From Desulfosudaceae bacterium (lineage in GTDB: Bacteria > Desulfobacterota > Desulfobacteria > Desulfobacterales > Desulfosudaceae), in the NCBI GenBank assembly GCA_963674745.2, contig CAXXDV010000003.1:1600001-1664000 (forward strand): DNA of 64,000 nucleotides, in the 5' to 3' direction. Shown piece after piece: positions 4,552 to 33,023 of this stretch. Position 1 is the stretch's first letter; each line of letters begins with the position of its first letter. The position numbers and the translations under genes are program-made. Under the pieces are notes generated by a model. It was not told where the DNA came from, did no database searches, and worked only from the letters and a program-made list of their open reading frames with translations.

Positions 4552-5046
4552 GACGTGTCCATTCCTCCAATGGATGCTACCGTAATAACAAAAAAGAAGA
4601 TAGCCGTCAAAAAGCAAGTCGTTTTAATAAACGGTTTCATCGTGCTCCCCCTGCCCTGTCTTTTTTGTTCAAAGCGATATTAAGCGGTCCATGTCAGTTG
4701 CGTTTCGGCAAATATTAACGATAAGTTATTTGATGTGAATAAAACATATTAACATATGCATCTAAGATTTTTCTTCACAAAAGGGCCTGCCTGATAAAAA
4801 AAGATATTTTTCTCTAAAACGATCTGCGTACAAAATTAACCAAAAGAAGGTTTAGAACGCCCTTTTTAAATCTGAAAAGAACGTGTTAAGATTTTTTAAG
4901 GTGTTAGGTTATATGGAATGGGGTCAATTTTTCTGGACGCCGGATCGGAGGCGGGGTGAAGAAAAAGAAAGCCTGATGATGATTGAACATTGACACCCTC
5001 CGTGTTATGTTTTTAAAAACTGAACCCTTTAAGGCTCTTCAATGAC

Positions 5047-5937
5047 ATGATGAGAGACAACAACAAACTTTTTGAACTGACTGATACCGATTCTCCTGCT
5101 GAGACCCTGGCCGAGATAAAATATATCCTGCATTTGATCGACCCTGATTTGGATCCATCGCCCATCGAAAAGATATTCAGGGATATCATCCTCATCTTTA
5201 CCGGGAAATTCCCCGGATACCGGGCAGCCAACACAAAATATCATAACCTTGAGCATACCTGTTCTACGGCTCTTGCTGCTGCCAGGCTCATTCATGGATT
5301 GCATGTCCAGGATGCGGTTTTTTCACCCCGGCTTGTTCAGCTTTGCCTGATCGGCGCGCTTTTTCACGATACGGGCCTGATCCAGACCGAAAAAGAAGTG
5401 GCGGGTACCGGGGCCCAATACACCATCGGTCACGAGAATCGCTCAATCGCCCTCATGGAGAAATATCTCTCTGGAAACGGATATTCCCGTGAGGACATCC
5501 GCGACTGTGGCCATATGATCAAGTGTACGGAACTCGCCTTTAACATGGACGATATCCCGTTTGCGTCTGAAGAAGTCGGGACCATGGCCAGAATCGTTGG
5601 CACCGCCGACCTGGTCGCCCAGATGGCGGACAAAAATTACCAGGAAAAACTCCCCCTGCTTTTTCTGGAGTTCCAGGAAGCCGGAATAAAAGGATTTGAG
5701 ACCCCTCTGGAGCTTTTTAAAGAAACCGAAGGCTTTTATCGATCGATCGCACGTAAACGAATGAAAAATGAACTCAACGGCATTTCTTCGGCAGCGCTTT
5801 ATCATTTCAGGGACAGGTGGAATATCGACCGGAACCTTTACGAGGATTCAATCAAGTACAATATAAGGCTGATGAAGGAAACGGTGATGGAGTCGCTGAT
5901 GCAGCTTTCCATTGTTTCAGGGCCGGATAAAGAATGA
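5047..5937 (+). CDS. HD-domain metal-dependent phosphohydrolase
   Basis: YHNLEH, FHDTG, HENRS and TADL motifs. Confidence 0.85.
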   Translation: MMRDNNKLFELTDTDSPAETLAEIKYILHLIDPDLDPSPIEKIFRDIILIFTGKFPGYRAANTKYHNLEHTCSTALAAARLIHGLHVQDAVFSPRLVQLCLIGALFHDTGLIQTEKEVAGTGAQYTIGHENRSIALMEKYLSGNGYSREDIRDCGHMIKCTELAFNMDDIPFASEEVGTMARIVGTADLVAQMADKNYQEKLPLLFLEFQEAGIKGFETPLELFKETEGFYRSIARKRMKNELNGISSAALYHFRDRWNIDRNLYEDSIKYNIRLMKETVMESLMQLSIVSGPDKE

Positions 5938-6060
5938 TGGCTTCGTAAAAAATTCAAGATCAAGGCGCGCAAATCCTGAGGAATGCAACAACATACATAG
6001 AAGTACGTGAAATTCCGAATGATGCAGCGCAACGAAGATATTGAACTTTTTACGAAGCCA

Positions 6061-7536
6061 TCAGGAAAAGATATGCTGCACGGGCTGAATCCCGAGGGCT
6101 GACGGGTGAAAGGTTTCGACGATACCCTTTTTATATTTGCCGGTTTCCGGATCGCGTTCGTCCAGGTTGATGATGTCTATTTTCTTATAACTGCCGTCTT
6201 TCTCTTTTTCCAGGATGCAGACCAATGGCCTTTTTCTAAAATCTCTGCTGGGAGAACTGACGACCAGGGCGAGTTCGCCGGTTTTAAGCTTCAGCAGGGT
6301 GCCGACCGGGTATACCCCAAGAATACTGATGAGCACCTTGATGAGGGTGGGATCATAGTGTTTTCCGGCACGATCGAACATGTAGCCAAGGGCTCGGTCA
6401 GGACTCAGCAGGTATTTCCTGTAAGCCCGCGCTGATGTTAAAGTGTCATATTTGTCTGCGATGGAAATAATTTTGCCGAAAAGGGTCATCGGTTTTTTCC
6501 AGCCGGCATGGGGATAGCCGGACAGGTCGTATCTCAGGTGATGCTCAAACATCGGCACCATGATTCTGGCCTTGCCTTCAGGGGATGCATTGAGCCTTAA
6601 TAACAGTCTTGCGCTGTTCAGTGAATGCGCTTCAACAAGTTTCAGCTCGCTGTCGGTCAGTTTATCCCTTTTATGCAGAATTTCGGCGGGGATTTCAATT
6701 TTCCCAAGGTCATGAAAAAGGGCACATATGCCAAGGCTGACGATATTGCGACGCGAGAGATTGATGCGCCTGCCGATGCACATGGACAGCATGGCAACAT
6801 TCACTGAATGCGTATAGGTGTAGTCGTCAAATACCCGGAGTGTGCTGATGGCAGCATAAACTTCGTCATCCTCGATAAGATGCGTCGTCATGCCCTGGAC
6901 AACCCGGACGGTTTTCCGTATACCCACCTCACGCTTCCCGTCTTTTAACTTCTGGGCGACTTCTTCGAGAGAGGCCCTGGCATAAGTGTAGTCCTTTCTG
7001 GCCCGTTCCATCCGTTCTGCCTTGTCCTTGTAAGAGGATTCACTGTCATCCTGAGGCCTTTCCGTTTTTTCGATCAGTTCAACCCATTGGATGTTTTCAG
7101 CCTCAAGGCAGTCTGTAATCCAGGCCAGCGGTTTCGGCTTTTGTTCCGCACTGTCCAGAAGACGCATGAACGCCAGGATCTCTTTTGCAGAGGCATCCGT
7201 GATAGCTTCGCGCAGACGCACGCCCTCCAGGCCGCGGGTACTGAAATAACGTATGATGTTATCAAAAAGACTCTTTGTAGTTCTGGTGTAGCTGAGTTTT
7301 TCATCATCAACATACAACTGGTCATTGGAGATTTTGAACGTCAATGCGTCATCATCAATGCAGTTTTTTATGGACCTGGAAAATTTTTCAATTCCCTCTT
7401 TAACCAGCGTATGGTTTTCGTTGTGAATTCGTGCCATCTGGCCCAGGCTGTAGAAGTTACGCAGGAATTCTTCAAATCCCGAATAGGCCTTGCTTTTTTC
7501 ACCATCAGACATTGGTGTCTTCTCCTGAGACATCAC
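6061..7536 (-). CDS. HD-GYP domain protein (putative cyclic-dinucleotide phosphodiesterase)
   Basis: YTYTHSVNV, HDLGK, HHLRYDLSGYP, IADKYD and a YPVG C-terminal segment. Confidence 0.9.
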   Translation of the reverse strand: MMSQEKTPMSDGEKSKAYSGFEEFLRNFYSLGQMARIHNENHTLVKEGIEKFSRSIKNCIDDDALTFKISNDQLYVDDEKLSYTRTTKSLFDNIIRYFSTRGLEGVRLREAITDASAKEILAFMRLLDSAEQKPKPLAWITDCLEAENIQWVELIEKTERPQDDSESSYKDKAERMERARKDYTYARASLEEVAQKLKDGKREVGIRKTVRVVQGMTTHLIEDDEVYAAISTLRVFDDYTYTHSVNVAMLSMCIGRRINLSRRNIVSLGICALFHDLGKIEIPAEILHKRDKLTDSELKLVEAHSLNSARLLLRLNASPEGKARIMVPMFEHHLRYDLSGYPHAGWKKPMTLFGKIISIADKYDTLTSARAYRKYLLSPDRALGYMFDRAGKHYDPTLIKVLISILGVYPVGTLLKLKTGELALVVSSPSRDFRKRPLVCILEKEKDGSYKKIDIINLDERDPETGKYKKGIVETFHPSALGIQPVQHIFS

Positions 7537-7537
7537 T

Positions 7538-9289
7538 TCAGGTCTTTATTTTATTCAACGCTTTCCTGACCACCCCGAACCGGCTTTCTGACGCTTCTTG
7601 AACAGCACCCGCTGCTTCCGGCGTATTAATATAAGACAGGGCTTTGGCGGCGCCCTCACGGAAAACCGGTTTCCCTGTCCCCATAAAACTGTTCCATCCT
7701 TTGTTAAGGAGTATGTTACTCAAAAACGGCACGGACGTGTCAGAACCGCAACGGCCAAGGGCCTCAAAACAGGCTAGGATATGAGCCGGATCTTTTTTTC
7801 CGATATTTTCCTTTATATAATCCAGCAGCATATGCTCCAGTGCGCCGGACCTCTGCCTGGCAAAAGCCGCCAGGATACTGGCGCGTATTTCCTTACTGGG
7901 GTCATCAATGAATGAAAACAGCTTTTGAGCGTATTCGGGGTCCCTTTTAACCAGTTCTTTGATCGCATTTCTGCGCACGATGTCGGATGAATGATCGCAC
8001 ATCCTGAGAATGATTTGATTGATCTCTTCTCCTTGCAGACGATTGAGTATGGCCAGAAGCTTGACGCCCATCTTCTCACCATGCTTCTGTGCTATTTCTT
8101 CAAGAGGCCCGATGTCACGCCGGCTCTTTTTCACGACCACATCCGTGATCAACTGCTGTATCTCGGGTGAATTCCTCTGTACAATGACCGGCACCAGAAA
8201 AGGAACAACCTGAGGCGAAAAATAACGCAGCGCCTGTCCGAGCGCCTTTAACATATCAACTTCACTCGTTGGCACGTTCAGGAGTTTATCGCTGATAAGC
8301 TGAAGGATTTCAGGGCTGTTCAGGTTCTGAAAAAACCGCTTGATGGAAGGGCGCCGCCAATCCTTTTTAGCTAATTCTTTGGTGAAGAGATTATGCAGGG
8401 ACTGAAACAATTTGATCACCAGTTCGATCTTATCCAGCTCAAGGGTTTTAACCGCCATTTCCGAGATGAAACCCAAAACCGCTTCGTATTTTTCAGGGTC
8501 GGACTGGCTGTTAAGTATAATCAGCAACAGGTCAAACAGGTCCCCGGTAATAATCCAGCTTTCTTCCTCTTCGACCATTTGCCGAAGTGTTTCATTATCG
8601 TCACCGGACAAACCCAGTTCGGCATCACCTTTTAAAATATCGGCTATACTTCGGGCATCAATTTCTTCTTTGTCAGACCCTTTCGGCTCCATGGGCCGGT
8701 CCGCTTCTCCTCCCGGTTCTTCTTCTTTTTGCTCAGTATCATCATCCTGAGATTCAGGTTGGGGAAGATTGGAAAAATCAATGAGCAGCATGTCCTGCCA
8801 GAAAATATCAACCGCCTTGAAATCAATGTATTCAAGTTCTTCATCTATCAGGTCGGTTACGATGTCTCCCTCGGCCTCTTCCAAAAACGATCTGTGATTA
8901 TTAACGGTTCTGAAAAAAGAAGCGATCTCCTCCAGCGTAAGACCCTCTTTAAACTCAATCCATTTGATACCGTCACGATAGAGGAGTGTCGTAATATCTT
9001 CCGACGAGGCCTCCTGTGAAACCTCATAGATGATTTCAGAACTGCAAAGGAGACGGTCTTTTTCCACCGTCAGCCGCAAATCACCATGGTTCGTGAAAAA
9101 ATTGCTGAATGCGTCAATTAGGTTTTCAAAAGATTTTATCGTATTTACATGATCCTCCGGATACAGGCCGTAATTCTTCCAGGCCAGGAGAAGAATCCTG
9201 GTTGCCTGCCTGGCATCCTGCAATTCATTATCCGAAAGGGATCTATGACCTTGATTTTCCTGTTGTTCCATTGTGTCTGCTTTTGTCAT
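7538..9289 (-). CDS. HEAT-repeat protein, adjacent to and upstream of the HD-GYP gene
   Basis: N-terminal LYPEDH domain and C-terminal HEAT-like repeats (DDPSKEIRA, ACFEALGRCG, REGAAKAL). Confidence 0.8.
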   Translation of the reverse strand: MTKADTMEQQENQGHRSLSDNELQDARQATRILLLAWKNYGLYPEDHVNTIKSFENLIDAFSNFFTNHGDLRLTVEKDRLLCSSEIIYEVSQEASSEDITTLLYRDGIKWIEFKEGLTLEEIASFFRTVNNHRSFLEEAEGDIVTDLIDEELEYIDFKAVDIFWQDMLLIDFSNLPQPESQDDDTEQKEEEPGGEADRPMEPKGSDKEEIDARSIADILKGDAELGLSGDDNETLRQMVEEEESWIITGDLFDLLLIILNSQSDPEKYEAVLGFISEMAVKTLELDKIELVIKLFQSLHNLFTKELAKKDWRRPSIKRFFQNLNSPEILQLISDKLLNVPTSEVDMLKALGQALRYFSPQVVPFLVPVIVQRNSPEIQQLITDVVVKKSRRDIGPLEEIAQKHGEKMGVKLLAILNRLQGEEINQIILRMCDHSSDIVRRNAIKELVKRDPEYAQKLFSFIDDPSKEIRASILAAFARQRSGALEHMLLDYIKENIGKKDPAHILACFEALGRCGSDTSVPFLSNILLNKGWNSFMGTGKPVFREGAAKALSYINTPEAAGAVQEASESRFGVVRKALNKIKT

Positions 9290-9435
9290 ATAGTCAACAG
9301 AACTATGGTAAACGTTTATTCGACAAAATAAAAAACCACCAGCCCCACAAGGTGAATATTTAATGGTACGACATGAAAGCCTTTTTAGTCAAATGATTGC
9401 CGTTTTTGATCAAAATAAATTGGGGCGCACTAACC

Positions 9436-9462: not shown

Positions 9463-12000
9463 CTATGTTCCAACCTCACCGGCACATTCATCCAGCACCC
9501 AACGAACAGCAGCGGCCAGTTGATCCCGCCGAACCGGCTTCATCAAAAAGGCATTGATCCCCAGGGCCGTGGCCTTTTTTTCATCTATCTGCTGGTTGAA
9601 GCCCGTGCACAGAATAACGGGCAATCGGGGCCGGATTTTATGAATTTCGGCGATCAGCTGAACACCGGTCATTTCCGGCATGGTCATGTCGGTCACCATC
9701 AGGTCAAACGTATCCGGGGCGTTCCGAAAAGCTTCCAGGGCGAGCGGACTGCCAACGTGCGGCGTCACTTTATAACCGAAGCCGGTCAAGAGCGAATTCA
9801 ACATGTCAAGGATACTGAGCTCGTCGTCAACCAGGAGAATATGTTCCGTTCCCCTGTTGGCCGAACCAGGCTTGTCCGCCGGCATTGGAGCGCACTCTGG
9901 GCCTGCCGCCGCCACCGGAAGAAAAACATGAAATGTCGCCCCCTGCCCGGGTGTGCTGGACACATCGATCAGGCCTTCATGCTCTCTGACGATCCCATAA
10001 GAAACTGACAGCCCCAGGCCGGTGCCTTTACCGATTTCCTTGGTCGTATAAAAGGGATCAAAGATTTTCATCATAACCGCCGGGTCCATCCCTGTGCCCG
10101 TGTCCGAAACAGACAGGTCGATGTAGTTCCCGGGCGCTATCTCCACACTCGGCAGTCGATCCCCAACAAGCTCAATTTCATTAAGCCCGATCGCAATTAT
10201 GCCGACATCCGCCTCCATGGCGTGGTGAGCGTTCACGATCAGGTTCATCAGCACCTGATGGATTTGGCCGGGATTGGCCATCACCGGCCGGCAGGACGAA
10301 TCAATATCAGCCCTTATCTCTATTGAGGTGGGTATAGAATGCCGGGTCAGGTCCAGTACCTCACGGATGATGTCCTGTATTTTGACGGGTGTTTTGTCGC
10401 TCTGCCGCTGCCGGCTGAAGGCGAGAATCTGTTTGACCAGATCGCTTGCTCGAGAGGCACTGCCCAGAATGGCTCGGGCATATTTTTGTTGTAGACTGTC
10501 GCCGCGCGTTATTTCCATGAGCATCTCAGCGTAACCGACGATCGGTGACAGGACGTTGTTGAAGTCATGCGCAATGCCGCCGGCAAGTGTTCCGATGGAC
10601 TCCATTTTCTGGGCCTGCAGGAGCTGGGATTGGAGGCTGATATTTTCCATCTCGGCCCGGCGGCGGGCGGTGATGTCACGGAACGTCCAGATACGGCCGT
10701 AGTTTTGGCCGTCTTTGCCTACAACAGGCGCCGAATATCGCTCCAAAACAGTCCCGTCCTTCAGTGCGACTTCGTCCTGCAATGTCTCCTCCGGATGGTT
10801 GTAAAGAAAGGTAACCTGCGCCAGAAACGCTTCCGGGTCCTTTGTTGAATTCATAACATACTGGACCTGGGTCTGATCATCGTCATTGTCGGCGATATGT
10901 TGCGGGATTTTCCAGAGTTCAATGCTCCGTCGGTTTTGAAAGACCTTTTTCCCTCTGCCGTCAACCACCAAAAGGCCTTCAGTGGTGGTATTGGCCTGGG
11001 CCTCTAAAAGCGCGGCCTGCCGGCGCAACTCGTCTTCCGCCCGTTTCTGATCCGATATATCGCGGGCCACTGAATACGTCACCCCCTTTTCCGGCTTCGG
11101 GTGTGACACCCAACTGAGCCAGCGGTAGCTACCGTCCCGGCACATATACCGGTTAATGAAATTGATTACCCTTTCCCCTTTTTGAAGTTTCGACTCCACC
11201 ATGTCTATTGTCTTCATGACATCATCCGGATGGATAAATTCAAGAAACGGTTTTGACTGGAGCTCATCTTCAGTAAAACCGAGCGTTTCCGTAAAGGCCG
11301 GATTGATCCTTATAAATGTCGAGGTCCGGATATCGGCAATGCATAGCATATCGAGGGACATGGAGAACACCTGCTCGAATTCTTTTCGGGCAAGCTGAAA
11401 GTAGATCAGAATCATCCCGATTGCGACAATAATCTCAATAAAGGCCCCCAGCAGGTATCCCCATGGGGCAAACCACTCCACGGGCCTCAGGAAGGGGTAA
11501 TCGATCTTGTGAACCCCCCATATGATAAAAGCAATCCCGACAACGCTCGGAAGGATTCCGTCCACCGTTCTGTACCGGAGTATCATGATGCCGGTCCAGA
11601 TGAAAACCATCCCGATAAACAGATAATTGGGAAGGCTTAAGAAAAGCAGGGTGGTGTCCGTCATGCCGCAGGCAAAAATCCACATGCCAATGGCAACTGC
11701 AAGATACACCCATAGCCGGTGCATGGACCGGTTGATAAAAACAAAGGTCCCGTACATCAGAAACATTCCGCTCAAGAGGGTGGTGATCTGGTTGCTGATC
11801 AACAGATACCGGGAATAGTCGTCGGGCCCGGCTGTAATCAGCACCAGCATCAATACGAAACGCAGGGTATATATGCACCACCCTATGGACCAGATGAACA
11901 GGTATTTCTGCCTGTCAACCGTATACAGGTAGAAGAAGGTCAGGGTCAGGACGACCGTTCCTGACAGCGTTGCGACAACCGAAGGTATCAGCCAGTTCAT
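9463..12000 (-). CDS. Membrane hybrid sensor histidine kinase (7TM, 2xPAS, HisKA, HATPase, REC)
   Basis: AHDFNN, NLIVNA, DTGTG, FYTTK, GTGLGL and a C-terminal receiver (LVDDE, TDMTMP). Confidence 0.95.
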   Translation of the reverse strand: MNWLIPSVVATLSGTVVLTLTFFYLYTVDRQKYLFIWSIGWCIYTLRFVLMLVLITAGPDDYSRYLLISNQITTLLSGMFLMYGTFVFINRSMHRLWVYLAVAIGMWIFACGMTDTTLLFLSLPNYLFIGMVFIWTGIMILRYRTVDGILPSVVGIAFIIWGVHKIDYPFLRPVEWFAPWGYLLGAFIEIIVAIGMILIYFQLARKEFEQVFSMSLDMLCIADIRTSTFIRINPAFTETLGFTEDELQSKPFLEFIHPDDVMKTIDMVESKLQKGERVINFINRYMCRDGSYRWLSWVSHPKPEKGVTYSVARDISDQKRAEDELRRQAALLEAQANTTTEGLLVVDGRGKKVFQNRRSIELWKIPQHIADNDDDQTQVQYVMNSTKDPEAFLAQVTFLYNHPEETLQDEVALKDGTVLERYSAPVVGKDGQNYGRIWTFRDITARRRAEMENISLQSQLLQAQKMESIGTLAGGIAHDFNNVLSPIVGYAEMLMEITRGDSLQQKYARAILGSASRASDLVKQILAFSRQRQSDKTPVKIQDIIREVLDLTRHSIPTSIEIRADIDSSCRPVMANPGQIHQVLMNLIVNAHHAMEADVGIIAIGLNEIELVGDRLPSVEIAPGNYIDLSVSDTGTGMDPAVMMKIFDPFYTTKEIGKGTGLGLSVSYGIVREHEGLIDVSSTPGQGATFHVFLPVAAAGPECAPMPADKPGSANRGTEHILLVDDELSILDMLNSLLTGFGYKVTPHVGSPLALEAFRNAPDTFDLMVTDMTMPEMTGVQLIAEIHKIRPRLPVILCTGFNQQIDEKKATALGINAFLMKPVRRDQLAAAVRWVLDECAGEVGT

Positions 12001-12111
12001 GTGTAAACGGTTTCTCCTTGAAGAGTTTTGCCCGTGGTGAGCGGGAAAGGCTGAATTTTATAGTCTATTAATATAAATAATCTCACAATAATCTGTATGA
12101 AGCAAGCAATA

Positions 12112-12130
12112 GGGGTCGGACCAGGCTAAC
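12112..12130 (+). repeat. GGGGTCGGACCAGGCTAAC boundary motif (family A)
   Basis: Direct repeat of 9436-9454. Confidence 0.75.
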
Positions 12131-12279
12131 TTAGGGTATTCCGGTATTCCGGGGACATCCATGATAAGTAAAGTCAAGGGAAAAAAAGAGTTTTCCCATC
12201 CGCCAAAGAATACCCCCTGGTGGTTATGTTCCCGGTTCTCCGCGTAAGCTCTTTTTAATCTGTGTCTATTCGATCGACG

Positions 12280-12470
12280 GTCTGCCGCGACCAGACATCC
12301 ATTTGCTGTATCAGCCGCTTTATCCTTAATAAATAAAGCGGCGTCACAGAAGATTGAGTTTGGGTTAAAACCCGCCGGCCTCGAAACAGTATAAAAGATT
12401 GTATCTCGATCGGCTGTTCGATCACACAGTCCCCAAAACGCGAGGCCCGGCGGGAAAGCAACAGACGGAT
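12280..12470 (-). ncRNA. Candidate bridge RNA (seekRNA) of the IS110 element; ends approximate
   Basis: Two stem-associated loops. Segments at 12429-12434 and 12386-12393 match the target GGGGAC/ACAGTATA; segments at 12358-12362 and 12295-12302 match the donor junction CAAAC/ACATCCAT. Confidence 0.75.
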
Positions 12471-12490
12471 AAACCGTTATTTTATAAAAT

Positions 12491-13528
12491 CTATGCCGCT
12501 TCCTGTTCTTCTCCTTTCGGCAGTTCAAACGTCTTTTGTCCTTTATCAACCGCAAGCATGTAGGCGACAAGCTTTCGTGCTACCGCCAGCGTGGCCCGGT
12601 TTTTATTGCCTTTCTCGATCTCTCGGGCATGCACCTCGGCCAGTTGCGGGTTCCAGTAAGGTGCCAGTTTGGCCGCTTCGACCAATATCGTTTGTAAATG
12701 TTTGTTTCGCTTCTTCGATATTGGGCCTCTCATATTTTTGCCGGCCGACTCTCTTTGAGCGCTGCATAACCCGCAATAACTGACAGCTTTCCGGGCCGAT
12801 GAAAAACGGCCAGGATCTCCGATCTCCAGTGCCCAGGTCAGGGCCGTAACCTCTCCGACACCCCTGATGGACATCAGTCGATCCACCCGTTCTTTTATCT
12901 GCTCATTATTGCGGAGCACCTTTAACAGTTTTTTTTGGATATCGGTAAACATCTCATATCCGGATCGGGACATGCGCAGCAGGTTTATTACCGACTCGGG
13001 CACATCTTCCATGTTCTCCAGCAACTCACGAAAATATTTTTTCCGGTGCAGTCTGCTTTTGGTGTATTCCGCGCCGCATTCCATCAGGAGGCCGGATATT
13101 TTGTTTTGCATACGAACCGCCTCTCTGACGATATGATTGCGATAACGGAGAATGCGGCGCAACTCCCGCATATCCTCAGGCATCATGTAACACTCCGGCA
13201 ATAAATCGCACCGCAACAGATCGGCAATCATTCGCGCGTCTACTTTGTCGTTTTTCTTTTTGGATGCAGAAATAGCCTTGAGCATCTGGGGATGGGCGAC
13301 CTTCAACTCCTCAGCATACGGTTTTAAAAAATCATAAATCCATCCTGAAAACATCGTTGCTTCCATGGCGCCTGTCCACGGCCCTGGCAGACCATCTGCC
13401 CAGTGGGTTAAAGCGGAACGCGTAGCGGATATCACCCCTTGTCCGATAACGGTTCCGTCTTGTTGTTTAATGCAATAAGCGATAGTTTTCTTGTGAATGT
13501 CCAGTCCGATATAGTATGATTTTTTCAT
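12491..13528 (-). CDS. IS110-family DEDD transposase/recombinase
   Basis: YIGLDIHK, MEAT, KNDKVDARMIA, GVGEVTA, YCGLCSAQRESAG and AVARKL motifs. AGGAGG RBS precedes ATG 13528. Confidence 0.97.
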   Translation of the reverse strand: MKKSYYIGLDIHKKTIAYCIKQQDGTVIGQGVISATRSALTHWADGLPGPWTGAMEATMFSGWIYDFLKPYAEELKVAHPQMLKAISASKKKNDKVDARMIADLLRCDLLPECYMMPEDMRELRRILRYRNHIVREAVRMQNKISGLLMECGAEYTKSRLHRKKYFRELLENMEDVPESVINLLRMSRSGYEMFTDIQKKLLKVLRNNEQIKERVDRLMSIRGVGEVTALTWALEIGDPGRFSSARKAVSYCGLCSAQRESAGKNMRGPISKKRNKHLQTILVEAAKLAPYWNPQLAEVHAREIEKGNKNRATLAVARKLVAYMLAVDKGQKTFELPKGEEQEAA

Positions 13529-13704
13529 GGGAGACCTCCTTGTTTGTGGATTCAGATTCTGAGCAAGCCCAGTGCCTGTCTCAGCCGGTATTTTAAATAC
13601 CACATCTGCCACCGGGAGGTCTCCTCTCTCAATTAACTTACTTATGCATTCAAACAGTATACTGGTTTAAATCTATATACAGAGATCGCCAGACCGGAAT
13701 TCCA

Positions 13705-15345
13705 TTATTCTGCCTGCAGTTTGACTGCCGTTAACGAACAAGGCGGAAACGAAAAGGCATCAGGTGTTTTGCCTTGAGGGGAGATACTTAGCGGGATAAT
13801 GTTTTCACGGTTCTCCGGTGTGTTTTGCGCGAACGGATCATCATGGGTAAGTGACATTATTTCCTTGAAGACGAATTGACGGTCAGTGAAGCCGGCAAAA
13901 GAGATCCCGGTTTTGACATGTTGTTCCAGGTGCCGGTTGACAACAACCAGAGATATGTTTTTCCCGTCATCCGACATGGTCGCCCCGGCATCGAGTACCG
14001 GGATTGCACCTTCCTTTACCATGCCGATTTTTTTATTCATAACCGTGGGGCATGCCATGTCAAGCGCCAGGTGATTTTGGTAAGCGTTGCTGAAAATCAT
14101 CCAAAAGGCATGGTAACTGGTGGTTTTAACGATCCCCCGGTCGTCGGTCCTGATCAGCCCGAGGCAATTAATCAGCTGGGAGCAGTTCCCCATGCCCATT
14201 ATTTTCCCCAGCCGCATCATTGACAACAGGACGGATGCCACAAACAAAGAATCGCTCAAGGTCCAGTTTGTTTTTATCATCTGTGACATCTGATACCAGG
14301 CATTCCATTCATCCAGTGCTATCCTGACAGTTGTGTCAGGGCCAAGCGCGTCTTCAACGGACTGCCGGCATCGACGCAACATCATTTCAAATTCAGCGGG
14401 AGCGGCCTGCATGGCATAATGTACTTTTTCATTATGCCAGGGGGGCAGGGAGCGACCCAGAAGCGCCCGGGGATTTATAATATTAATGTTTGTCCACGGT
14501 GCGTAAATATGAACACTCAAATAATCGACATAGCCGTCAATCGCGCTTAAAAGCGTGGTGTTCCATTCCGCCGTATGACGGGTAACAAGGATATCCCGCC
14601 ACCCGGGGTCAATGCCGCTGGCGACCAGCCTGATACCCGGATCTTTCTGTTTCATGGCCCTGGCAAACTGCAGGTATCGCCGGGCGTAGCTGTCCGGGCG
14701 TTTTTCCCAGCCTGGAATATACCTGCCCCAGATTTCATTGGCGATCCCCCAGTATTTTACATTATACGGTTCGGGATTGACCTTTGCCCGCAGAGCGCCG
14801 AATGCCGTGTCTGAAGAACCGTTACAGTATTCTACCCAATTGGCGGCCTCTTCGGGTGTGCCGGTTCCATAATTGATGTTGATATACGGATCGGCGTTGA
14901 TTTTCCGGCAGAGGGCATTAAACTCATCCGTGCCGAATTGATTATGAACATAAGGGCCGGGCACGCCATATTTATTTCTGAAAAATCCATAGGGGATGAA
15001 TTTGCCCCAGAATTTATTGGGGTGCCCTCTTCTGTCTTCTGATTTTCCGACACCGTCCTGCCAATGGTATGTCTCGGCATAGTTCCCCCCCGGCCACCTG
15101 AGCACAGGTCCCGGCCCTTTGTCGGCATGTTGAAACAGCGGGATCACGGCCTGAAGAACATCTGCCCGGACGCCGCTCAAAAAAGAGTCATCGCAGTGCG
15201 GCAGGCTTTTGTATCGCTCCGAGGTTGTCCACAGGCCGTCATGAATGGCCTCACCGAGTTCCTCGATAAAATGGCCGAATATATTTCTGTCAATTTGATG
15301 CTGAATATTATTCTTGATTTTGATGTCAGCCACTGAATACCCCAC
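13705..15345 (-). CDS. abfA: GH51 alpha-L-arabinofuranosidase
   Basis: FGHFIEELG, RWPGGN, FGTDEF, WVEYCNG, WGIANE (acid/base) and ALDEWN (nucleophile). The start codon is uncertain. Confidence 0.88.
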   Translation of the reverse strand: MGYSVADIKIKNNIQHQIDRNIFGHFIEELGEAIHDGLWTTSERYKSLPHCDDSFLSGVRADVLQAVIPLFQHADKGPGPVLRWPGGNYAETYHWQDGVGKSEDRRGHPNKFWGKFIPYGFFRNKYGVPGPYVHNQFGTDEFNALCRKINADPYININYGTGTPEEAANWVEYCNGSSDTAFGALRAKVNPEPYNVKYWGIANEIWGRYIPGWEKRPDSYARRYLQFARAMKQKDPGIRLVASGIDPGWRDILVTRHTAEWNTTLLSAIDGYVDYLSVHIYAPWTNINIINPRALLGRSLPPWHNEKVHYAMQAAPAEFEMMLRRCRQSVEDALGPDTTVRIALDEWNAWYQMSQMIKTNWTLSDSLFVASVLLSMMRLGKIMGMGNCSQLINCLGLIRTDDRGIVKTTSYHAFWMIFSNAYQNHLALDMACPTVMNKKIGMVKEGAIPVLDAGATMSDDGKNISLVVVNRHLEQHVKTGISFAGFTDRQFVFKEIMSLTHDDPFAQNTPENRENIIPLSISPQGKTPDAFSFPPCSLTAVKLQAE

Positions 15346-15352
15346 GAATCTC

Positions 15353-15364
15353 GGGGACAGTATA
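15353..15364 (+). repeat. GGGGACAGTATA motif (family B), an empty IS110 target site
   Basis: Exact 12-bp match to the reconstituted IS insertion site; lies between two genes. Confidence 0.8.
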
Positions 15365-15380
15365 TCGATTTATTTGCAGC

Positions 15381-16112
15381 TTAAACCGCCCCGGTGTTAT
15401 TTTCGATTTCCTGCTTGAAGTAGGCATTCGCCAGTTGAAGGAAATCGTCACGTGACAGCAGCTCTTGTGAAACGCGGTTTAACACCTCGTCCGGAATGAC
15501 TTCATTCCGCCCGGCGAACCGCCCGGCCTCACGACAGCCTTCGTAGACAGGCTTCATCCTGTCCGGTTCGAGTGCATCGAAAATTTCCATCATCGGTCCG
15601 TGGGGCCTGAGAAGGGAGCCCAGGTACTGCCGGCAACCCAGCCGGACAAAAGCCTGAACATGCGCTACCAGCTCATCGAAGTGATGCATCTCGTGAAAAC
15701 CGCAGTTGGACAACAGCACCATCGAAGAGTTTTTGGTTCCCTCGCGGAACGGATGGGTACACTGACCGTCCTTGACTTCAATGAACGGCAGCGCCAGCGG
15801 AATGATCCGGTCCATCATGATTTTCATCTGGGCCGTCATGCCGCATACATAGAGCGGCGTAGCGAGAACCACCACATCCGCCTGTCGCAAAAGTTCGAGC
15901 ATACGCTGCATGTCATCCTTCTGCACGCATTCTCCGGGTGTCTTGAGCCAGCAGTTGAAACACCCGATGCAGGGATTGATTTTCATTCCCTGAAGATAGA
16001 CCAGGTCAACAGTTGCACCTGTTTCTTTTGCCCCCTCAATAAACGGTAGCAGCATACGGTCCGTATTGCTCAATTTCTTCCTGGGGCTGCCGTTGATCGC
16101 CAGAAGTTTCAT
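15381..16112 (-). CDS. Iron-sulfur flavoprotein / NADPH-dependent FMN reductase family
   Basis: INGSPRK, CIGCFNCW…C and ATPLY motifs. Confidence 0.88.
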   Translation of the reverse strand: MKLLAINGSPRKKLSNTDRMLLPFIEGAKETGATVDLVYLQGMKINPCIGCFNCWLKTPGECVQKDDMQRMLELLRQADVVVLATPLYVCGMTAQMKIMMDRIIPLALPFIEVKDGQCTHPFREGTKNSSMVLLSNCGFHEMHHFDELVAHVQAFVRLGCRQYLGSLLRPHGPMMEIFDALEPDRMKPVYEGCREAGRFAGRNEVIPDEVLNRVSQELLSRDDFLQLANAYFKQEIENNTGAV

Positions 16113-16198
16113 GCCCTCACCTCTTTTGTGTTTGTGTTATTGGAAAAAATGAACCGAACATCCCCCATCCAGGCATTTAAAAAAAATCATACTCTTAT

Positions 16199-16216
16199 TT
16201 CCAGGGACAGTATCCC
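16199..16216 (+). repeat. Degenerate family B motif (TTCCAGGGACAGTATCCC)
   Basis: Similar to TTCCGGGGACAGTATAC. Confidence 0.55.
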
Positions 16217-16236
16217 TATTTTAAATTTATTGCAGG

Positions 16237-16257
16237 AAGCCCCCTCGAAGGGGGCTT
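16237..16257. terminator. GC-rich hairpin
   Basis: AAGCCCCCT-CGA-AGGGGGCTT perfect stem, ~130 bp downstream of the minus-strand gene ending at 16389. Confidence 0.55.
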
Positions 16258-16301
16258 TTGGGTTGGGAGAAGAGCCCAATTTTTATTACCTATTACCCTG
16301 C

Positions 16302-16368
16302 TTGATCAACAAGCCGGCCTTGTTATCGATAATGGCCATAAAAGCGACTTCTTATCCTTTCCTTATGA
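16302..16368 (+). repeat. Promoter/end module copy with a degenerate -35
   Basis: GGCCATAAAAGCGACTTCTTATCCTTTCCTTATGA is nearly identical to 1715-1750. Confidence 0.75.
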
Positions 16369-16388
16369 AATTGGTGGAATAAGTTTGT

Positions 16389-17960
16389 TTAGCCGGATTT
16401 TTCACGGATTTGTTTATAAAATAATATGCCGATGGAAAAGAGCATAATTGAGACAACCGGAGCGACCTGCCATTTACCATGCAACCCCAGCCAACGCCCC
16501 ATAATGAATGACCGCGTGTCAGATGGCGGCCGATCGGGTTGAGGTTTTCTTAAAGGAAAATTTCTATCCGTGAGGAACTGCAGGTTGTCATTTGCAAACT
16601 GTTTATAAAATTGCGGTAATGGATTGGACCAGAATTGTTGTATGACCGGATGATCATCCGGTCGGACATTGGGGGAGGATGTAGACACTGTAGCGGCTAT
16701 CAGCATGTTGCTGACGGAAAACGCCAGCATCAACGCGCCGGGTATTGTTACAATCCAAGGGCGGGGTAATTGAAGATGTGTGATGCCCACGGCGGCAAGG
16801 ATTATGTACCATTGAAGCCCGACTATCTGATAACGAGGTCCGGTAGACCAGCCGCCGTGCCAGCCGTTGAAAGACACGTTTAGTACAAAAAAAAGTATGA
16901 TATTAGCTAGAGCCAACCAAGGCACCCAGCGATATTTTCCCAGCTTACCGGTCACCAGAAGCCCTAAGGGAAAGAGACAAAGAACGGGCATATACCAAAA
17001 CAGACCACGGTAGGACGAAAACGTCAATCCGAAAACAGCCTGCTTGAATCCGAAAAAATCAAACAGGCCACCGGCGGCGTTGGTCGAGAGAAATAGTGGA
17101 TTGCTATAGATCGAAGCGGGCATGAAGAATGATCCGAAACAAATTTTGTGATACCCGGCGAAGATCAGAGCCGGGAACAGTCCGCCCAGGCAGAAACGAG
17201 CAAGAGATCGCGGGTTCCGGCGCATCACCATATAAATAAAAACAACGGCGACGGTCAGGGCGGTGGTATAATCACAGAGCACTGCCAGTCCGAAAAAAAG
17301 ACCGGAAAGGCTTTCATAATTTGTCGGTTGTCTTACCAGAAAGAAAAATCCGGAAATGCAAAAAGCGGCGGCAAGTGTGTGCCCCCATAATTGAGTGGAA
17401 AACGGAAACATCAGTGTGCCGAAATAAAGGGCGAAGGTGCCCAAGCCCGCCACAAGATCGTTTTGTTTACATAAGGTCAGAAGGGACAGGTAAAAAAGGA
17501 TACTCGATAGGGCCACCGGCACAACCGTTACGAAAAAATTAATGATGAAGCTGTTGACATTAGTGGCTTCCGTACGCAACGGGTCAATCCCCAGTCCCCT
17601 TTCCAACCAGTAGAGGACGGCATAAACCGGTATTCCCATAATTGACGGCAGCGGCGGTTTGTTGGAATAGAAATTGCGGTCGTACTGCGGGTTGTTTGCC
17701 CAGTCACAGGTGTTTGTGTACCGGTCGGGGCCGCAGCCCTTGAACCGGTTGATATGAAACGTATACGTGTCGGCCGTTCCCGGCTCCACAAAACTAAAAA
17801 TCACATTGAGTCGGGCCGCTTGGTTTGCGTTGGCGCCGTTATGAAACCATCCATAGGCGACTGTAATAGCAAAGCATAACATCAGCGCCATTTTCGGAAC
17901 GGTTGAAGCGGGCAATAAAGACCGAGCACTGTGAACGCGTCGTTGGTGAACAGATATCAT
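16389..17960 (-). CDS. Polytopic membrane protein, GT-C-like glycosyltransferase
   Basis: Many TM helices; FYSNKPP, SYRGLFWYMP and WHGGWSTGPRY motifs. Confidence 0.7.
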   Translation of the reverse strand: MISVHQRRVHSARSLLPASTVPKMALMLCFAITVAYGWFHNGANANQAARLNVIFSFVEPGTADTYTFHINRFKGCGPDRYTNTCDWANNPQYDRNFYSNKPPLPSIMGIPVYAVLYWLERGLGIDPLRTEATNVNSFIINFFVTVVPVALSSILFYLSLLTLCKQNDLVAGLGTFALYFGTLMFPFSTQLWGHTLAAAFCISGFFFLVRQPTNYESLSGLFFGLAVLCDYTTALTVAVVFIYMVMRRNPRSLARFCLGGLFPALIFAGYHKICFGSFFMPASIYSNPLFLSTNAAGGLFDFFGFKQAVFGLTFSSYRGLFWYMPVLCLFPLGLLVTGKLGKYRWVPWLALANIILFFVLNVSFNGWHGGWSTGPRYQIVGLQWYIILAAVGITHLQLPRPWIVTIPGALMLAFSVSNMLIAATVSTSSPNVRPDDHPVIQQFWSNPLPQFYKQFANDNLQFLTDRNFPLRKPQPDRPPSDTRSFIMGRWLGLHGKWQVAPVVSIMLFSIGILFYKQIREKSG

Positions 17961-18633: not shown

Positions 18634-18700
18634 CTCAAAAATATTGACACACAAGGCTGTCCTTGCCATTAATGATGACCATAAAAGCAACTTCTTATCC
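18634..18700 (+). promoter_or_regulatory. Portable promoter module
   Basis: CTCAAAAATATTGACACACAAGG…CCATAAAAGCAACTTCTTATCC, 41 bp upstream of the ORF at 18742. Confidence 0.75.
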
Positions 18701-21440: not shown

Positions 21441-21753
21441 GGGGCCTCAGGGGTCGGACCTAAAGGGCCTCAGGGAGCGGACCTAACTAACGGTCTGATC
21501 TAAAACAAGATACATCTCAAAATCACCGAAGAATAAGGCTTAGAAAGCACTTTTTGCCCCTAAAAAGATCATTCTAAGTTTTTTTACATAATTGGCATCT
21601 TAAATCAATGTTATTAACCCCCAAAAGTTATTTTAAAAGCTAAGAAACAGCTTTATTTATTTTCACCGGGCGGATTAAAGTGCGGTCTCAAAAATATTGA
21701 CACACAAGACCGTCATTGCTATAAATGGTTAACTTAAAAACAAGTTCTTATCC
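21441..21753 (+). mobile_element. Longer non-autonomous element: duplicated family A motif, internal module and promoter end
   Basis: GGGGTCGGACC at 21450 sits in a near-tandem duplicated 23-mer. Internal homology to 1641-1695. TTGACA(21697)-17-TATAAA, then TTCTTATCC. Confidence 0.6.
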
Positions 21754-26837: not shown

Positions 26838-26904
26838 AAATATTGACACACAAGGCCGGACCTTGCTATATGATGATGACCATAAAGGCAGCTTTTTTAT
26901 CCTT
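26838..26904 (+). promoter_or_regulatory. Portable promoter module
   Basis: AAATATTGACACACAAGGCCGGACCTTGCTATATGATGATGACCATAAAGGC…TTATCCTT. Confidence 0.75.
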
Positions 26905-27554: not shown

Positions 27555-27557
27555 TTC

Positions 27558-27963
27558 CTACAGGCCTTTAGGCCGGCCGTTTTTATCCCATCCGCGGAGT
27601 TTATAATACCGGGAAAGCATCTTTTCCAGTTCGATTCCGGGCCAGCCATCTTCCCGGACCTCATTTAAGATGCGGTCAGGCAGGGTGTCATCGGCCCGGG
27701 TAATCCCTTCCCGGCAGTTCATGTACCGTTCCAGGTTGAAAGTGCGCTCGCCGGCAGTGTAAAAATCTTTTGAGGTGACGTTGTATCCCATGATGCCGGA
27801 CAGCAGCGCGGCATAGTCGGAAAGATCGGTTGTGGCAACCGCTATGGCAGGAAGGTAGCGCATCAACAGGCGCATGATGGGGATGGGGGTGTGCCTGTAT
27901 ATGAAATTCTCTTCTAAAAACGGAAATTCGGTCCATATGCAGAAGATGGCCGAGTTTACCGCT
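27558..27963 (-). pseudogene. Displaced duplicate of the AOR 3' end
   Basis: 27561-27963 is a 403-bp direct repeat of 31176-31578 with about 10 substitutions. Confidence 0.92.
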
Positions 27964-31168: not shown

Positions 31169-33023
31169 CCTCGTGCAGACCTTTAGGACGGCCGTTTTTA
31201 TCCCATCCGCGGAGTTTATAATACCGGGAAAGCATCTTTTCCAGTTCGATTCCGGGCCAGCCATCTTCCCGGACCTCATTTAAGATGCGGTCCGGCAGGG
31301 TGTCATCGGCCCGGGTAATCCCTTCCCGGCAGTTCATGTAACGTTCCAGGTTGAAAGTGCGCTCGCCGGCAGTGTAAAAATCATTCGGGGTGACGTTGTA
31401 TCCCATGATGCCGGACAACAGCGCGGCATAGTCGGAAAGGTCGGTTGTGGCGACCGCTATGGCAGGAAGGTAGCGCATCAACAGGCGCATGATGGGGATG
31501 GGGGTGTGCCTGTATATGAAATTCTCTTCTAAAAACGGAAATTCGGTCCATATGCAGAAGATGGCCGAGTTTACCGCTTCGGTCAGGTCCTGCATGAACT
31601 TGACGAAATGGGCCTTGCCCCTGGTGCCGAGCGGGCTGAGGTAGGAGTCCGCCTCAATGGCATGCGTGCTGCCCGACAGATGGGTGGCGCCGCTGTTGGC
31701 TGTGGCATACCCCAGTCCCTGTCCGGTACATCCCCGGGGATCATAGGCCGCCATTTCAAGCCCCTTGACGTGAATGGCAAATTCCGCGCCGCCCCTTTTT
31801 TCGGACAACGTTCTGACGCCTTCGGCCAGTTCGTTTCCCAGTCCGCGCCGATAGGCAATATCCACGATTATTTCTTCAATACCGTTCGGGTTGCCGAAGG
31901 CGAGGTCGCTTTTCAGCAGGCCTTTTTCCGTTAATTCCATGGCAAAGCCGATGACATTGCCGGTGCTGATGGTATCCATGCCGAGCCGGTTCAACAGCTC
32001 ATTCCAGCGTGCGATATGGGGAAGACTGGTAATCATCAGGTTTGACCCCATCAGGCCGATGGTCTCATATTCCGGTGAAATCATCTCCTTGTTATTGAAT
32101 ACACCGATTCGCCCGCATTGAATGGCGCATCCGGTACAGCCGTGCCTTTTTTTCAAATGCCGGTCCCTGATGGTTTCACCGCAGATATCGTCAATATTAT
32201 CTACCGTTGAGCGGCTGAAGTTCCGGCTTGGCATGATCCCGTATGGACCGTATTTCATTACATTGAGGGGCGTTCCCAGTTCCGGCAGGGTATGGCCGGT
32301 AACGGCATGGGACTTGATTTTATTTCTGGCGGTGGTGACGGCTCGTTTGAATTTTTCAGGATCAGCCGGATGAATTTTACGGTTGCCCGAGGCAACAATC
32401 CCTTTCAGCTTTTTGGCACCCATCACCGCACCCAGGCCGCAACGACCGGCAATGCGCCTGCCCGAGGCAATGACAGCGAATTTGACCATGTTCTCCCCGG
32501 CCGGGCCGATCACCACCCAGTCACCCTCTTCTTTTCCGCGTTCCTGGGTATCACGTGTATCCATGCCCCATATGGCGGTAGCGTCGACGATCTCCTGGGC
32601 CTTGTCCGTCACCCTGACATATACCGGTGTTTCAGACGCCCCGCGGACCATGATGCCGTCAAACCCGGCGCGTTTCAGGCTCAGCCCGAACCGGCCGCCG
32701 GTGTATGAAGAGGCGAAAATCCCGGTCAGCGGGGATTTTGATACGACCGCAAACCGGCCGCCGGATGGTGCCGCCGTGCCGGCGGCCGGTCCGCTCATGA
32801 TGACCAGTATGTTTTCAGCTGAAAGCGGATCGATTCCGGGTGAAATGTGATCGTACAGTATTTTTAAAGCCAGGCCCTTTCCCCCGATATAGTTCTTTCT
32901 GTCTTCGGAGGAGACAGAAAGAACGGATATTTGTCCGGACGTCAGGTCAACATCTAAAACCTTGTTGGTAACGGCGATTATGTCAGTAATGGCGACCACC
33001 TCGCGTTTTGGTGAATACGGCAT
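31152..33023 (-). CDS. aor: Tungsten aldehyde:ferredoxin oxidoreductase family protein
   Basis: KSPLTG, IGPAGEN, GRCGLGAVMG, CTGCAIQC, PEYET, GMDTIS, YDPRG and YYKLRGWD motifs. Confidence 0.93.
   Translation of the reverse strand: MPYSPKREVVAITDIIAVTNKVLDVDLTSGQISVLSVSSEDRKNYIGGKGLALKILYDHISPGIDPLSAENILVIMSGPAAGTAAPSGGRFAVVSKSPLTGIFASSYTGGRFGLSLKRAGFDGIMVRGASETPVYVRVTDKAQEIVDATAIWGMDTRDTQERGKEEGDWVVIGPAGENMVKFAVIASGRRIAGRCGLGAVMGAKKLKGIVASGNRKIHPADPEKFKRAVTTARNKIKSHAVTGHTLPELGTPLNVMKYGPYGIMPSRNFSRSTVDNIDDICGETIRDRHLKKRHGCTGCAIQCGRIGVFNNKEMISPEYETIGLMGSNLMITSLPHIARWNELLNRLGMDTISTGNVIGFAMELTEKGLLKSDLAFGNPNGIEEIIVDIAYRRGLGNELAEGVRTLSEKRGGAEFAIHVKGLEMAAYDPRGCTGQGLGYATANSGATHLSGSTHAIEADSYLSPLGTRGKAHFVKFMQDLTEAVNSAIFCIWTEFPFLEENFIYRHTPIPIMRLLMRYLPAIAVATTDLSDYAALLSGIMGYNVTPNDFYTAGERTFNLERYMNCREGITRADDTLPDRILNEVREDGWPGIELEKMLSRYYKLRGWDKNGRPKGLHEAKALQ

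Follow-up and report, generated by a model that had tools for sequence, protein, structure and literature searches.

An IS1111-type element and its predicted guide RNA

The window analysed here is a whole stretch of 64,000 nucleotides (nt) from a Desulfosudaceae bacterium (contig C3, positions 1600001-1664000, of genome G000, which comprises three contigs and 5.55 Mb). On its minus strand, an IS1111-type insertion sequence (IS) occupies positions 12158-13656 (1,499 bp, with one of the two TGT/ACA copies counted in). Very probably, this is an active-looking IS1111 element whose predicted guide RNA spells out a target lying inside a local host repeat. This reading is carried by the anatomy of the element, the same target in its two copies, a conserved RNA structure, and the covariation of guides and flanks in its relatives; the expression of the RNA, a circular intermediate, and the recombination chemistry would be those of the published family mechanism.

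The transposase gene (12491-13528, minus strand) encodes a protein of 345 amino acids (aa) that was recognized with both Pfam and NCBIfam. It contains the domains DEDD_Tnp_IS110 (PF01548, residues 7-150; 1.6e-20) and Transposase_20 (PF02371, residues 216-299; 2.9e-20), and it scored 210.8 bits against the NCBIfam model NF033542 (IS110 family RNA-guided transposase), which has a cut-off of 140; in the PDB, it had a weak match to the IS621 transposase (7e-8). The non-coding end downstream of the gene is 333 nt long (12158-12490), versus 128 nt upstream (13529-13656). The right subterminal inverted repeat, ATGATAAGTAAAGT (12161-12174), was read from the sequence, as was its partner at 13636-13649 (reverse complement ATGCATAAGTAAGT). 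The pair (ATGCATAAGTAAGT versus ATG-ATAAGTAAAGT) spans 14 nt and includes a single mismatch and a single gap, the latter being the reason why it was not listed by the automated repeat search. The terminal extensions are 7 nt at the left end (TGTTTGA) and 3 nt at the right end (GGA).

These features correspond to those given for the IS1111 group in the passages of PMC11187229 that describe it: transposases of 330-350 aa, a longer non-coding region downstream of the gene, subterminal inverted repeats of 11-13 bp, terminal extensions of 7 or 6 bp at the left and 3 bp at the right, and a seekRNA in which the match to the top strand of the target lies 5' of the match to the bottom strand. Bridge RNAs with target and donor loops have also been predicted in the right ends of IS1111 members (PMC11208160), and the choice of target by a guide RNA is described as the established mechanism of IS1111 and IS110 elements (PMC11187229, PMC11208160). 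With its IS110 domains, its 345-aa protein, the longer downstream non-coding end, the subterminal repeats, the 7- and 3-nt extensions, and the order of the guide matches, the IS is a typical IS1111 element and belongs to a kind of element that is already known.

On the plus strand, the flank TTCCGGGGAC (12151-12157) meets ATCCATG at the left of the element, and TTCAAAC meets AGTATA (to 13661) at the right. Since ACA (TGT on the element strand) stands at both junctions (12155-12157 and 13654-13656), the exact crossover cannot be placed inside these 3 nt. The limits of BLAST identity between the two genomic copies, 12139 and 13669, were rejected as the ends of the IS, because the copies differ at 12145/12146 and past 13661, whereas the interior is identical.

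A seekRNA/bridge RNA with a target loop followed by a donor loop is predicted at 12258-12457 (minus strand), within the 333-nt non-coding end, and the region folded (361 nt) was more stable than shuffled sequences (z = -3.17). In the predicted fold, a 13-bp stem (CCCGCCGGGCCUCG / CGAGGCCGGCGGG) closes the target loop and a small hairpin tops it. The two guides lie on its 5' side (UUUUGGGGAC; 12429-12438, minus strand) and its 3' side (UAUACUGU; 12386-12393, minus strand), the former 36 nt 5' of the latter. In the orientation of the element, the target reads TATAC-TGT-CCCC-GGAA. The 5' guide pairs with the top strand GT-CCCC-RRRR, that is, the core and the right target, and is complementary to GT-CCCC-GGAA with two G-U pairs. 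The 3' guide equals the top strand TATAC-TGT, the left target and the core, and pairs with the bottom strand. The donor loop, the second internal loop of the predicted RNA (12295-12364, minus strand), has CCCAAAC on its 5' side (12358-12364), complementary to GTTTG at the left end of the IS, and AUGGAUGU on its 3' side (12295-12302), which equals the right end of the IS plus the core TGT. Together, the guides specify approximately 5 + 3 + 8 nt (~16 nt), TATAC-TGT-CCCC-RRRR, the reverse complement of which contains GGGGACAGTATA. The 12-mer that the earlier note had reconstituted as the insertion site is thus encoded in the element's own predicted guide RNA, which had not been noticed there.

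In the mechanism that we propose, a DEDD/serine recombinase would work with a seekRNA transcribed from the 333-nt end downstream of its gene. In the first loop, UUUUGGGGAC would pair with the top strand of the core and right target and UAUACUGU with the bottom strand of the left target and core, and the second loop would match the joined ends of the IS (ATGGA-TGT-TTG). Because the two loops specify both the target and the joined ends, the IS would insert only at the guide-specified sequence and in one orientation, leaving TGT at both junctions.

Two further observations concern the ends of the element. If joined, they (12157-12185 and 13650-13656) would give TTGACT-17 nt-TTGAAT, with TGT just ahead of the -10 box, so that a junction promoter is possible; such promoters have been reported in this IS family. 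An open reading frame (ORF) of 170 aa with a TTG start (12058-12570, minus strand) runs from the non-coding end of the IS over the right junction into the flank and overlaps the predicted seekRNA; it is probably not a gene.

Target sites in this genome and in related elements

The genome contains only two copies of the IS, on different contigs, the second at C1:2188855-2190385. The copies are 100% identical across the whole element, and mismatches begin in the flanks, at 12145/12146 and after 13661. Both lie between TTCCGGGGAC and AGTATA, and their remaining flanks differ. In the orientation of the element, the occupied target in the window consists of a left half, ...CCAGTATAC TGT (13654-13668, minus strand), and a right half, TGT CCCC GGAATA CCGGAATA (12141-12157, minus strand).

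A third site lies 2.2 kb before the window, where 24 nt (C3:1597784-1597807) are identical to the right junction, TATCATGGA-TGT-CCCCGGAATACC. Here, the left part of the host repeat (AAAATAAGTAT) directly joins the last 9 nt of the right end of the IS, TGT, and the right target, and an inverted copy of the repeat, located 45 nt upstream, is paired with the stretch. A third copy was probably deleted here, leaving this scar; on the simplest reading, the deletion would have taken place between two TAT triplets. The expectation that the earlier note had put forward for checking, that all copies sit in GGGGAC^AGTATA, agrees with both identical copies and with the probable scar, and the sharing of one target sequence by all three bears out the site specificity of the IS. 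In another genome of the same genus (G001), two right-end fragments of the IS (~125 and ~190 nt) lie beside similar flanks; they are accompanied by no transposase and contain no target loop.

We collected 79 related loci with transposase identities of 62-73%, mostly from Desulfobacterota-type metagenome-assembled genomes. Their 3' non-coding ends aligned with that of the IS, with the stems kept and both guide segments variable. The donor loop is invariant in the relatives, and so are the IS ends (right, ...ACTTATCATGGA followed by TGT; left, TGT followed by TTGAATGCATAAGTA). The RNAalifold consensus of 33 sequences had 43 pairs, 22 of which showed compensatory changes.

Each guide was then compared with its own flank and with the flanks of other loci, with 10,000 permutations; the left test covered the 55 loci with a recognizable left end, and the right test covered 30 distinct loci among the 38 with a clean right junction. 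The left guides matched their own flanks at a mean of 4.80 of 8 positions, versus 2.54 for the flanks of other loci, and positions -5 to -1 before TGT agreed in 42, 47, 37, 44, and 48 of the 55 loci, where 16-25 were expected. The corresponding values for the right guides were 5.67 of 8 and 4.36 (6.63 versus 5.39 with wobble pairs). The natural re-direction of the left guide is visible across 55 relatives. The targets reconstructed for 32 relatives had the consensus aAAttaagtAtac TGT CCCC.gatTtcc, in which AAG before TAT is conserved although it lies outside the coverage of the guides.

Several points weigh against an RNA-guided IS1111 element with this target. The absence of any permutation that reached the observed sum (0 of 10,000 in all three tests) overstates the significance, since the related loci are not phylogenetically independent. 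In three of the 55 relatives, the left flank was matched at only 2 of 8 positions, and five loci (L019, L042, L044, L081, and L037) adjoin TATAC-TGT though their own guides read otherwise. The target consensus in this genome rests on a small sample of two insertions and one scar. The C-terminal motif of the transposase, GLCSAQRESAG, deviates from the published GL-P----S(t)G in having Ser for Pro and SA followed by G for SG; HMMER aligned it to ESG of IS621 with a one-residue gap. Finally, Rfam yielded no family at E <= 1 in window 11900-16500. With approximately 16 nt specified, two sites occupied, one scarred, and one free, the IS offers a clean natural example of its kind, and the pairs of guides and targets among its relatives are ready-made natural specificities for bridge-recombinase engineering.

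Empty sites and the 28-nt host repeat

The 12-mer GGGGACAGTATA recurs exactly at window positions 15353-15364 (plus strand) and, with two mismatches, as AGGGACAGTATC at 16203-16214, so that the recurrences given in the earlier note were recovered in searches for exact and two-mismatch matches. The former belongs to an empty target 1.7 kb from the IS, TATAC TGT CCCC GAGA (15349-15364, minus strand). At this site every one of the 16 guide positions is matched, with A-U or G-U pairs in the last four, and no other uninterrupted sequence in the genome is matched in full; the chance expectation is 0.04 per genome. The latter belongs to a degenerate member of the family, GATAC TGT CCCT GGAAA (16198-16214, minus strand), with one guide mismatch and one G-T wobble. 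Other near-targets are C3:1555408, mismatched once in the right part, and a further six sites with a single mismatch in the 12-mer.

As the earlier note had observed, the three sites bracket one ORF each. A gene for a GH51-like alpha-L-arabinofuranosidase (13705-15345, minus strand; Pfam Alpha-L-AF_C, 1.4e-22; NCBIfam ArfA, 194 bits against a cut-off of 625) lies between the occupied and the empty site, and an FMN-reductase/flavodoxin-like gene (15381-16112, minus strand; Pfam FMN_red, 4.1e-20) lies between the empty and the degenerate site. The distance between the site and the GTG of the GH51-like gene at 15345 is indeed 7 nt; the real start may instead be another GTG in the same frame, at 15333, which follows GGGG. 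Neither the GH51 gene nor the transposase of the IS was found at E <= 1e-30 among the 40 relatives searched.

Four sequencing runs were examined as assembled contigs, in which rare variants are invisible. The contigs of runs X1 and X2 run unbroken across 15357, and neither an IS-skipping joint nor one at 15357 was reported in the run contigs, where rare variants cannot show. The IS assembled as a separate contig of 1,511 nt (12151-13661) whose depth was approximately double that of its flanks, as expected for two copies. In runs X1-X3, the segment formed by the final ~40 nt of the IS right end and the adjoining target (window 12146-12197) was covered 3-4 times as deeply as the remainder of the IS, and in several contigs it continued into other sequences; therefore, related elements or right-end fragments occur in the same samples.

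In the window, the 12-mer with up to two mismatches occurs seven times, versus 3.1 expected; because 3 of 100 shuffles reached seven matches, the degenerate copy alone is not significant. Across the genome, the exact 12-mer has two uninterrupted copies (window 15353 and C3:1555408) and two interrupted by the IS, with 0.66 expected, and its 10-mer core GGGACAGTAT has 10 copies, versus approximately 10.5 expected. However, 11 of the 24 genome-wide matches with up to one mismatch lie in C3:1.50-1.62 Mb, where approximately 0.5 would be expected, which agrees with the proposal that the target belongs to a local repeat family. Occurrence at chance frequency, which the earlier note had named as a point that would count against this, is thus nearly true of the bare 12-mer (2 versus 0.66), but not of the longer family.

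The alignment of 29 sites from this stretch revealed a motif of approximately 28 nt, gaAATagG TATAC TGT CCCC GGAAT Tcc, upstream of which nothing is conserved (information < 0.5 bit). Approximately 30 copies are packed into C3:1.495-1.630 Mb. A weight matrix gave 31 matches of at least 20 bits, 27 of them in this stretch, which is 2.4% of the genome, and the reversed matrix gave none; the matrix was trained on sites from the same stretch, and an unbiased figure is therefore given by the 12-mer count (11 of 24). The copies lie almost exclusively between genes. Single copies number 15, and 13 of them are directed into the next gene, which in 10 cases lies within 200 nt. Eight pairs form inverted doublets, 13-176 nt apart, and all eight lie just downstream of a plus-strand gene; the doublets, two of which share a homologous spacer, are able to form long hairpins, whereas a single copy is no hairpin. 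Tandem duplication, with a period of 8-11 nt, is frequent in the part that follows TGTCC, and both targets of the IS carry such a duplication (CCGGAATA CCGGAATA and CCGGAAAT CCGGAAAT). A variant, TATACTGGCACCGGAATTCC, predominates at 1.566-1.579 Mb (C3:1566216-1578591), with 8-9 copies. Rfam at the gathering score detected no family in 115 kb of the repeat region. Readings of the repeat as an integron site, an Xer/dif-like site, a Tn7-like end, or a sigma-70 promoter were rejected, as we found no integrase among the 102 of 123 ORFs scanned, no dyad of 11-nt arms, no Tn7-type genes in the region, and no -35 box.

The proximity of a second perfect target, 1.7 kb from the IS, is explained by the packing of the repeat, of which the target is the core, into a variable 135-kb stretch. 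Since neighbouring members of the family are typically 1-10 kb apart there, this distance is unremarkable, and neither local hopping nor a special mechanism is called for.

A pattern search of 120 other genomes of the order, allowing up to two mismatches, gave 116 motif matches versus 63 for the reversed control (totals summed by hand), a weak overall excess. Several genomes stood out, with motif and control counts of 9 and 2 (G065), 7 and 1 (G064), 6 and 1 (G017), 6 and 0 (G031), and 5 and 0 (G007 and G036). In G017, G065, and G031, the matches formed tight intergenic clusters of AATTAAGTAT-NN-TGTCCCCGGAAT, in which NN is specific to the genome and partial duplications stand in tandem.

The 135-kb region around the repeats contains a mixed accessory gene set. 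Pfam identified DruA, a BglII-type nuclease, Fic/RhuM, a HipA N-terminal domain, and several TetR regulators, as well as a glycyl-radical enzyme, aminotransferases, and adhesin-like proteins. Pfam scans, which covered 102 of the 123 ORFs called there, revealed no integrase, and the only recombinase families were the transposase of this IS110-family element and an IS200-like Y1 transposase. The latter (C3:1589115-1590254, 379 aa) is RAYT-like (REP-associated tyrosine transposase; REP, repetitive extragenic palindrome), with a weak DnaA_C-type helix-turn-helix and 54 bits against an NCBIfam cut-off of 80. It is flanked at 1590288-1590318 by a different repeat, GAAACGCATAAAATCATAGACGTCCCC, the first 16 letters of which occur nine times in the genome. 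G001 shares window 4935-9420 at 86-90% identity, and synteny ends at 9420; a second genome, G002, shares only repeats.

It is quite possible, if somewhat short of probable, that the 28-nt repeat is a selfish palindromic host element resembling a REP, a REPIN (REP doublet forming a hairpin), or a miniature inverted-repeat transposable element (MITE), which the IS would use as a safe landing site, as ISPa11 and ISPpu9 do. The intergenic position of the copies and the eight hairpin-capable doublets, two with a homologous spacer, are consistent with this, as are the clusters that the motif forms, with a varying dinucleotide, in further genomes of the order, its presence in the flanks of the IS relatives, and the RAYT-like Y1 transposase in the region, with another near the G017 cluster. 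The targeting of REPs by IS1111/IS110 members is also described in PMC11187229 and PMC12288879. On the other hand, the copies number only ~30 and are not dispersed, with 27 of 31 strong matches confined to 2.4% of the genome; a single copy is no hairpin; and the Y1 proteins reach 54-56 bits against a cut-off of 80, the one in this genome being flanked by a different repeat.

We regard it as unlikely that the repeat is a promoter or operator common to the accessory genes, with TATACT as a -10 box or factor-binding site and the IS inserting between repeat and gene. The shared orientation of most single copies (13 of 15) and the gene that follows, within 200 nt in 10 cases, and the tandem duplications after TGTCC, whose 8-11-nt period is as in binding-site arrays, would suit such a role, as would the resemblance of TATACT to a -10 hexamer and that of the variant TATACTGGCACCGGAATTCC, but for one base, to a sigma-54 -24/-12 element. 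However, no -35 element is conserved upstream of the motif (< 0.5 bit), the commoner variant lacks the GG required by sigma-54, and the minus-strand halves of the doublets point into the 3' ends of genes.

The earlier note had also suggested that the IS parasitises the boundary sites of a putative cassette system, or that the recombinase could itself rearrange the genes between them. In its fuller form, with the IS recombinase or composite transposition moving genes, regenerating targets, and building the island, this is most improbable. It would account for the intergenic sites pointing into the next gene in 13 of 15 single copies, the heterogeneous accessory genes, the GH51 gene not found in 40 relatives, the end of synteny with G001 at window 9420, and the direct orientation of the three sites around the GH51 and flavoprotein genes, and cargo between IS ends has been moved experimentally, as described in PMC11187229. 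Nevertheless, no module was seen in two contexts; the long intervals between repeats were 8 convergent, 11 direct, and 1 divergent by hand count, inverted intervals being about as frequent as direct ones; and the position of all eight doublets downstream of a plus-strand gene is not predicted by composite transposition. The IS has just two copies, on different contigs, and the genome contains two more IS110-family types, of ~1.6 and 1.74 kb with two copies each (C3:2262732, 2594331, 1846100, and 2335798), whose ends and flanks are unrelated to the motif, so that a link between these types and the repeat was rejected. We found no evidence for rearrangement between sites, and the published mechanism pairs the donor junction of the joined IS ends with a target, not two targets; nor was a cassette system indicated by the Pfam scan, in which no integrase came up among 102 of 123 ORFs, and no attC-type boxes were seen. 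That the 12-mer recurs 1.7 kb from the IS by chance is scarcely credible, because although the genome-wide frequencies of the exact 12-mer and of its 10-mer core are close to expectation, the flanks share ~16 further conserved positions with ~30 other sites, 11 of 24 near-exact matches fall within 125 kb, and the reversed matrix has no match where the matrix gives 31.

Under the preferred reading, an IS1111 element guided to a local host repeat, the repeat is of more interest than the IS. This 28-nt intergenic motif is conserved and recurs in several genomes of the order, is oriented relative to genes, lies in a variable defence-rich stretch, and has no described function. A highly speculative extension, to which we give little credence, is that the motif AATTAAGTAT-NN-TGT-CCCCGGAATT and this IS1111 clade co-evolve across Desulfobacterota-type genomes, with the left guide tracking NN; the motif would mark the 5' edge of accessory modules, and the insertion of IS-flanked cargo would regenerate motifs, growing an RNA-guided analogue of an integron array. 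If it is true that the motif organizes gene modules, this would be a new kind of genome architecture.

Other repeats were also observed in the window. A second intergenic family (...ATGGCCATAAAAGCRACTTCTTATCC) has 4-5 copies there, sometimes next to the 28-nt motif (1694-1738, 16313-16357, 18656-18700, 21709-21753, and 26873-26897; also 1602-1695 and 21451-21544), and related pieces occur in G001 and G002. A MITE-like repeat of ~128 nt lies between convergent genes at 5936-6063, with dozens of copies at 74-92% identity in G001/G002. Long in-frame tandem repeats occupy 46900-48850 and 43800-45220; one array has 29 units of 66-69 nt, and the other consists of 162-180-nt units in which Asp/Cys codons abound, resembling the MopE-type metal-binding repeats of a paralogue at C3:1546837. 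Two 300-nt stretches, 27556-27855 and 31171-31470, are 96% identical and 3.6 kb apart.

Comparison with known systems

The repeat region differs from an integron cassette array in that no tyrosine recombinase was found among the 102 of 123 ORFs scanned and in that the repeat ends in GGAATTCC, not GTTRRRY. The attC boxes R''/R' have the form RYYYAAC ... GTTRRRY, and no attC-type boxes were seen. The repeat resembles REP/REPIN elements with a RAYT in its intergenic location, its inverted doublets that can form hairpins, and the nearby Y1 transposase gene; unlike them, it is not dispersed (27 of 31 matches in 135 kb), and the Y1 protein is below the cut-off and flanked by another repeat. REP elements have a GTAG-type head, which the 28-nt repeat seems to lack.

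IS621, of the IS110 group, also has a two-loop RNA that binds target and donor, and a core at both junctions, as described in PMC11208160, and its protein is weakly matched (7e-8). It differs in having its RNA in the left end, upstream of the gene, a core of CT versus GT/TGT here, no long subterminal repeats, and a recombinase of ~326 aa. ISPpu9 of Pseudomonas putida KT2440 is likewise an IS110-family element in a REP; a gene for a small RNA follows its transposase, and this module also exists as extra solo copies (PMC12288879). The solo right-end fragments in G001, in contrast, lack the target loop.

The seekRNAs of ISEc11, ISKpn4, and ISPst6 have been shown experimentally, whereas that of the present element is a prediction from sequence, and their targets are a short linear site or attC. 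They share with it the 3' non-coding RNA, the top-strand match 5' of the bottom-strand match, and natural re-direction by changed guide segments, according to the sections of PMC11187229 that deal with them. ISPa11, an IS1111 element of Pseudomonas aeruginosa, has another target sequence and a host of another phylum, and its REPs are dispersed and numerous (>1000 insertions), versus ~30 copies in 135 kb here; in the account given in PMC11187229, it nevertheless has a similar transposase (~340 aa), downstream seekRNA region, and subterminal repeats, and it too inserts at one position of a repetitive extragenic element of its host.

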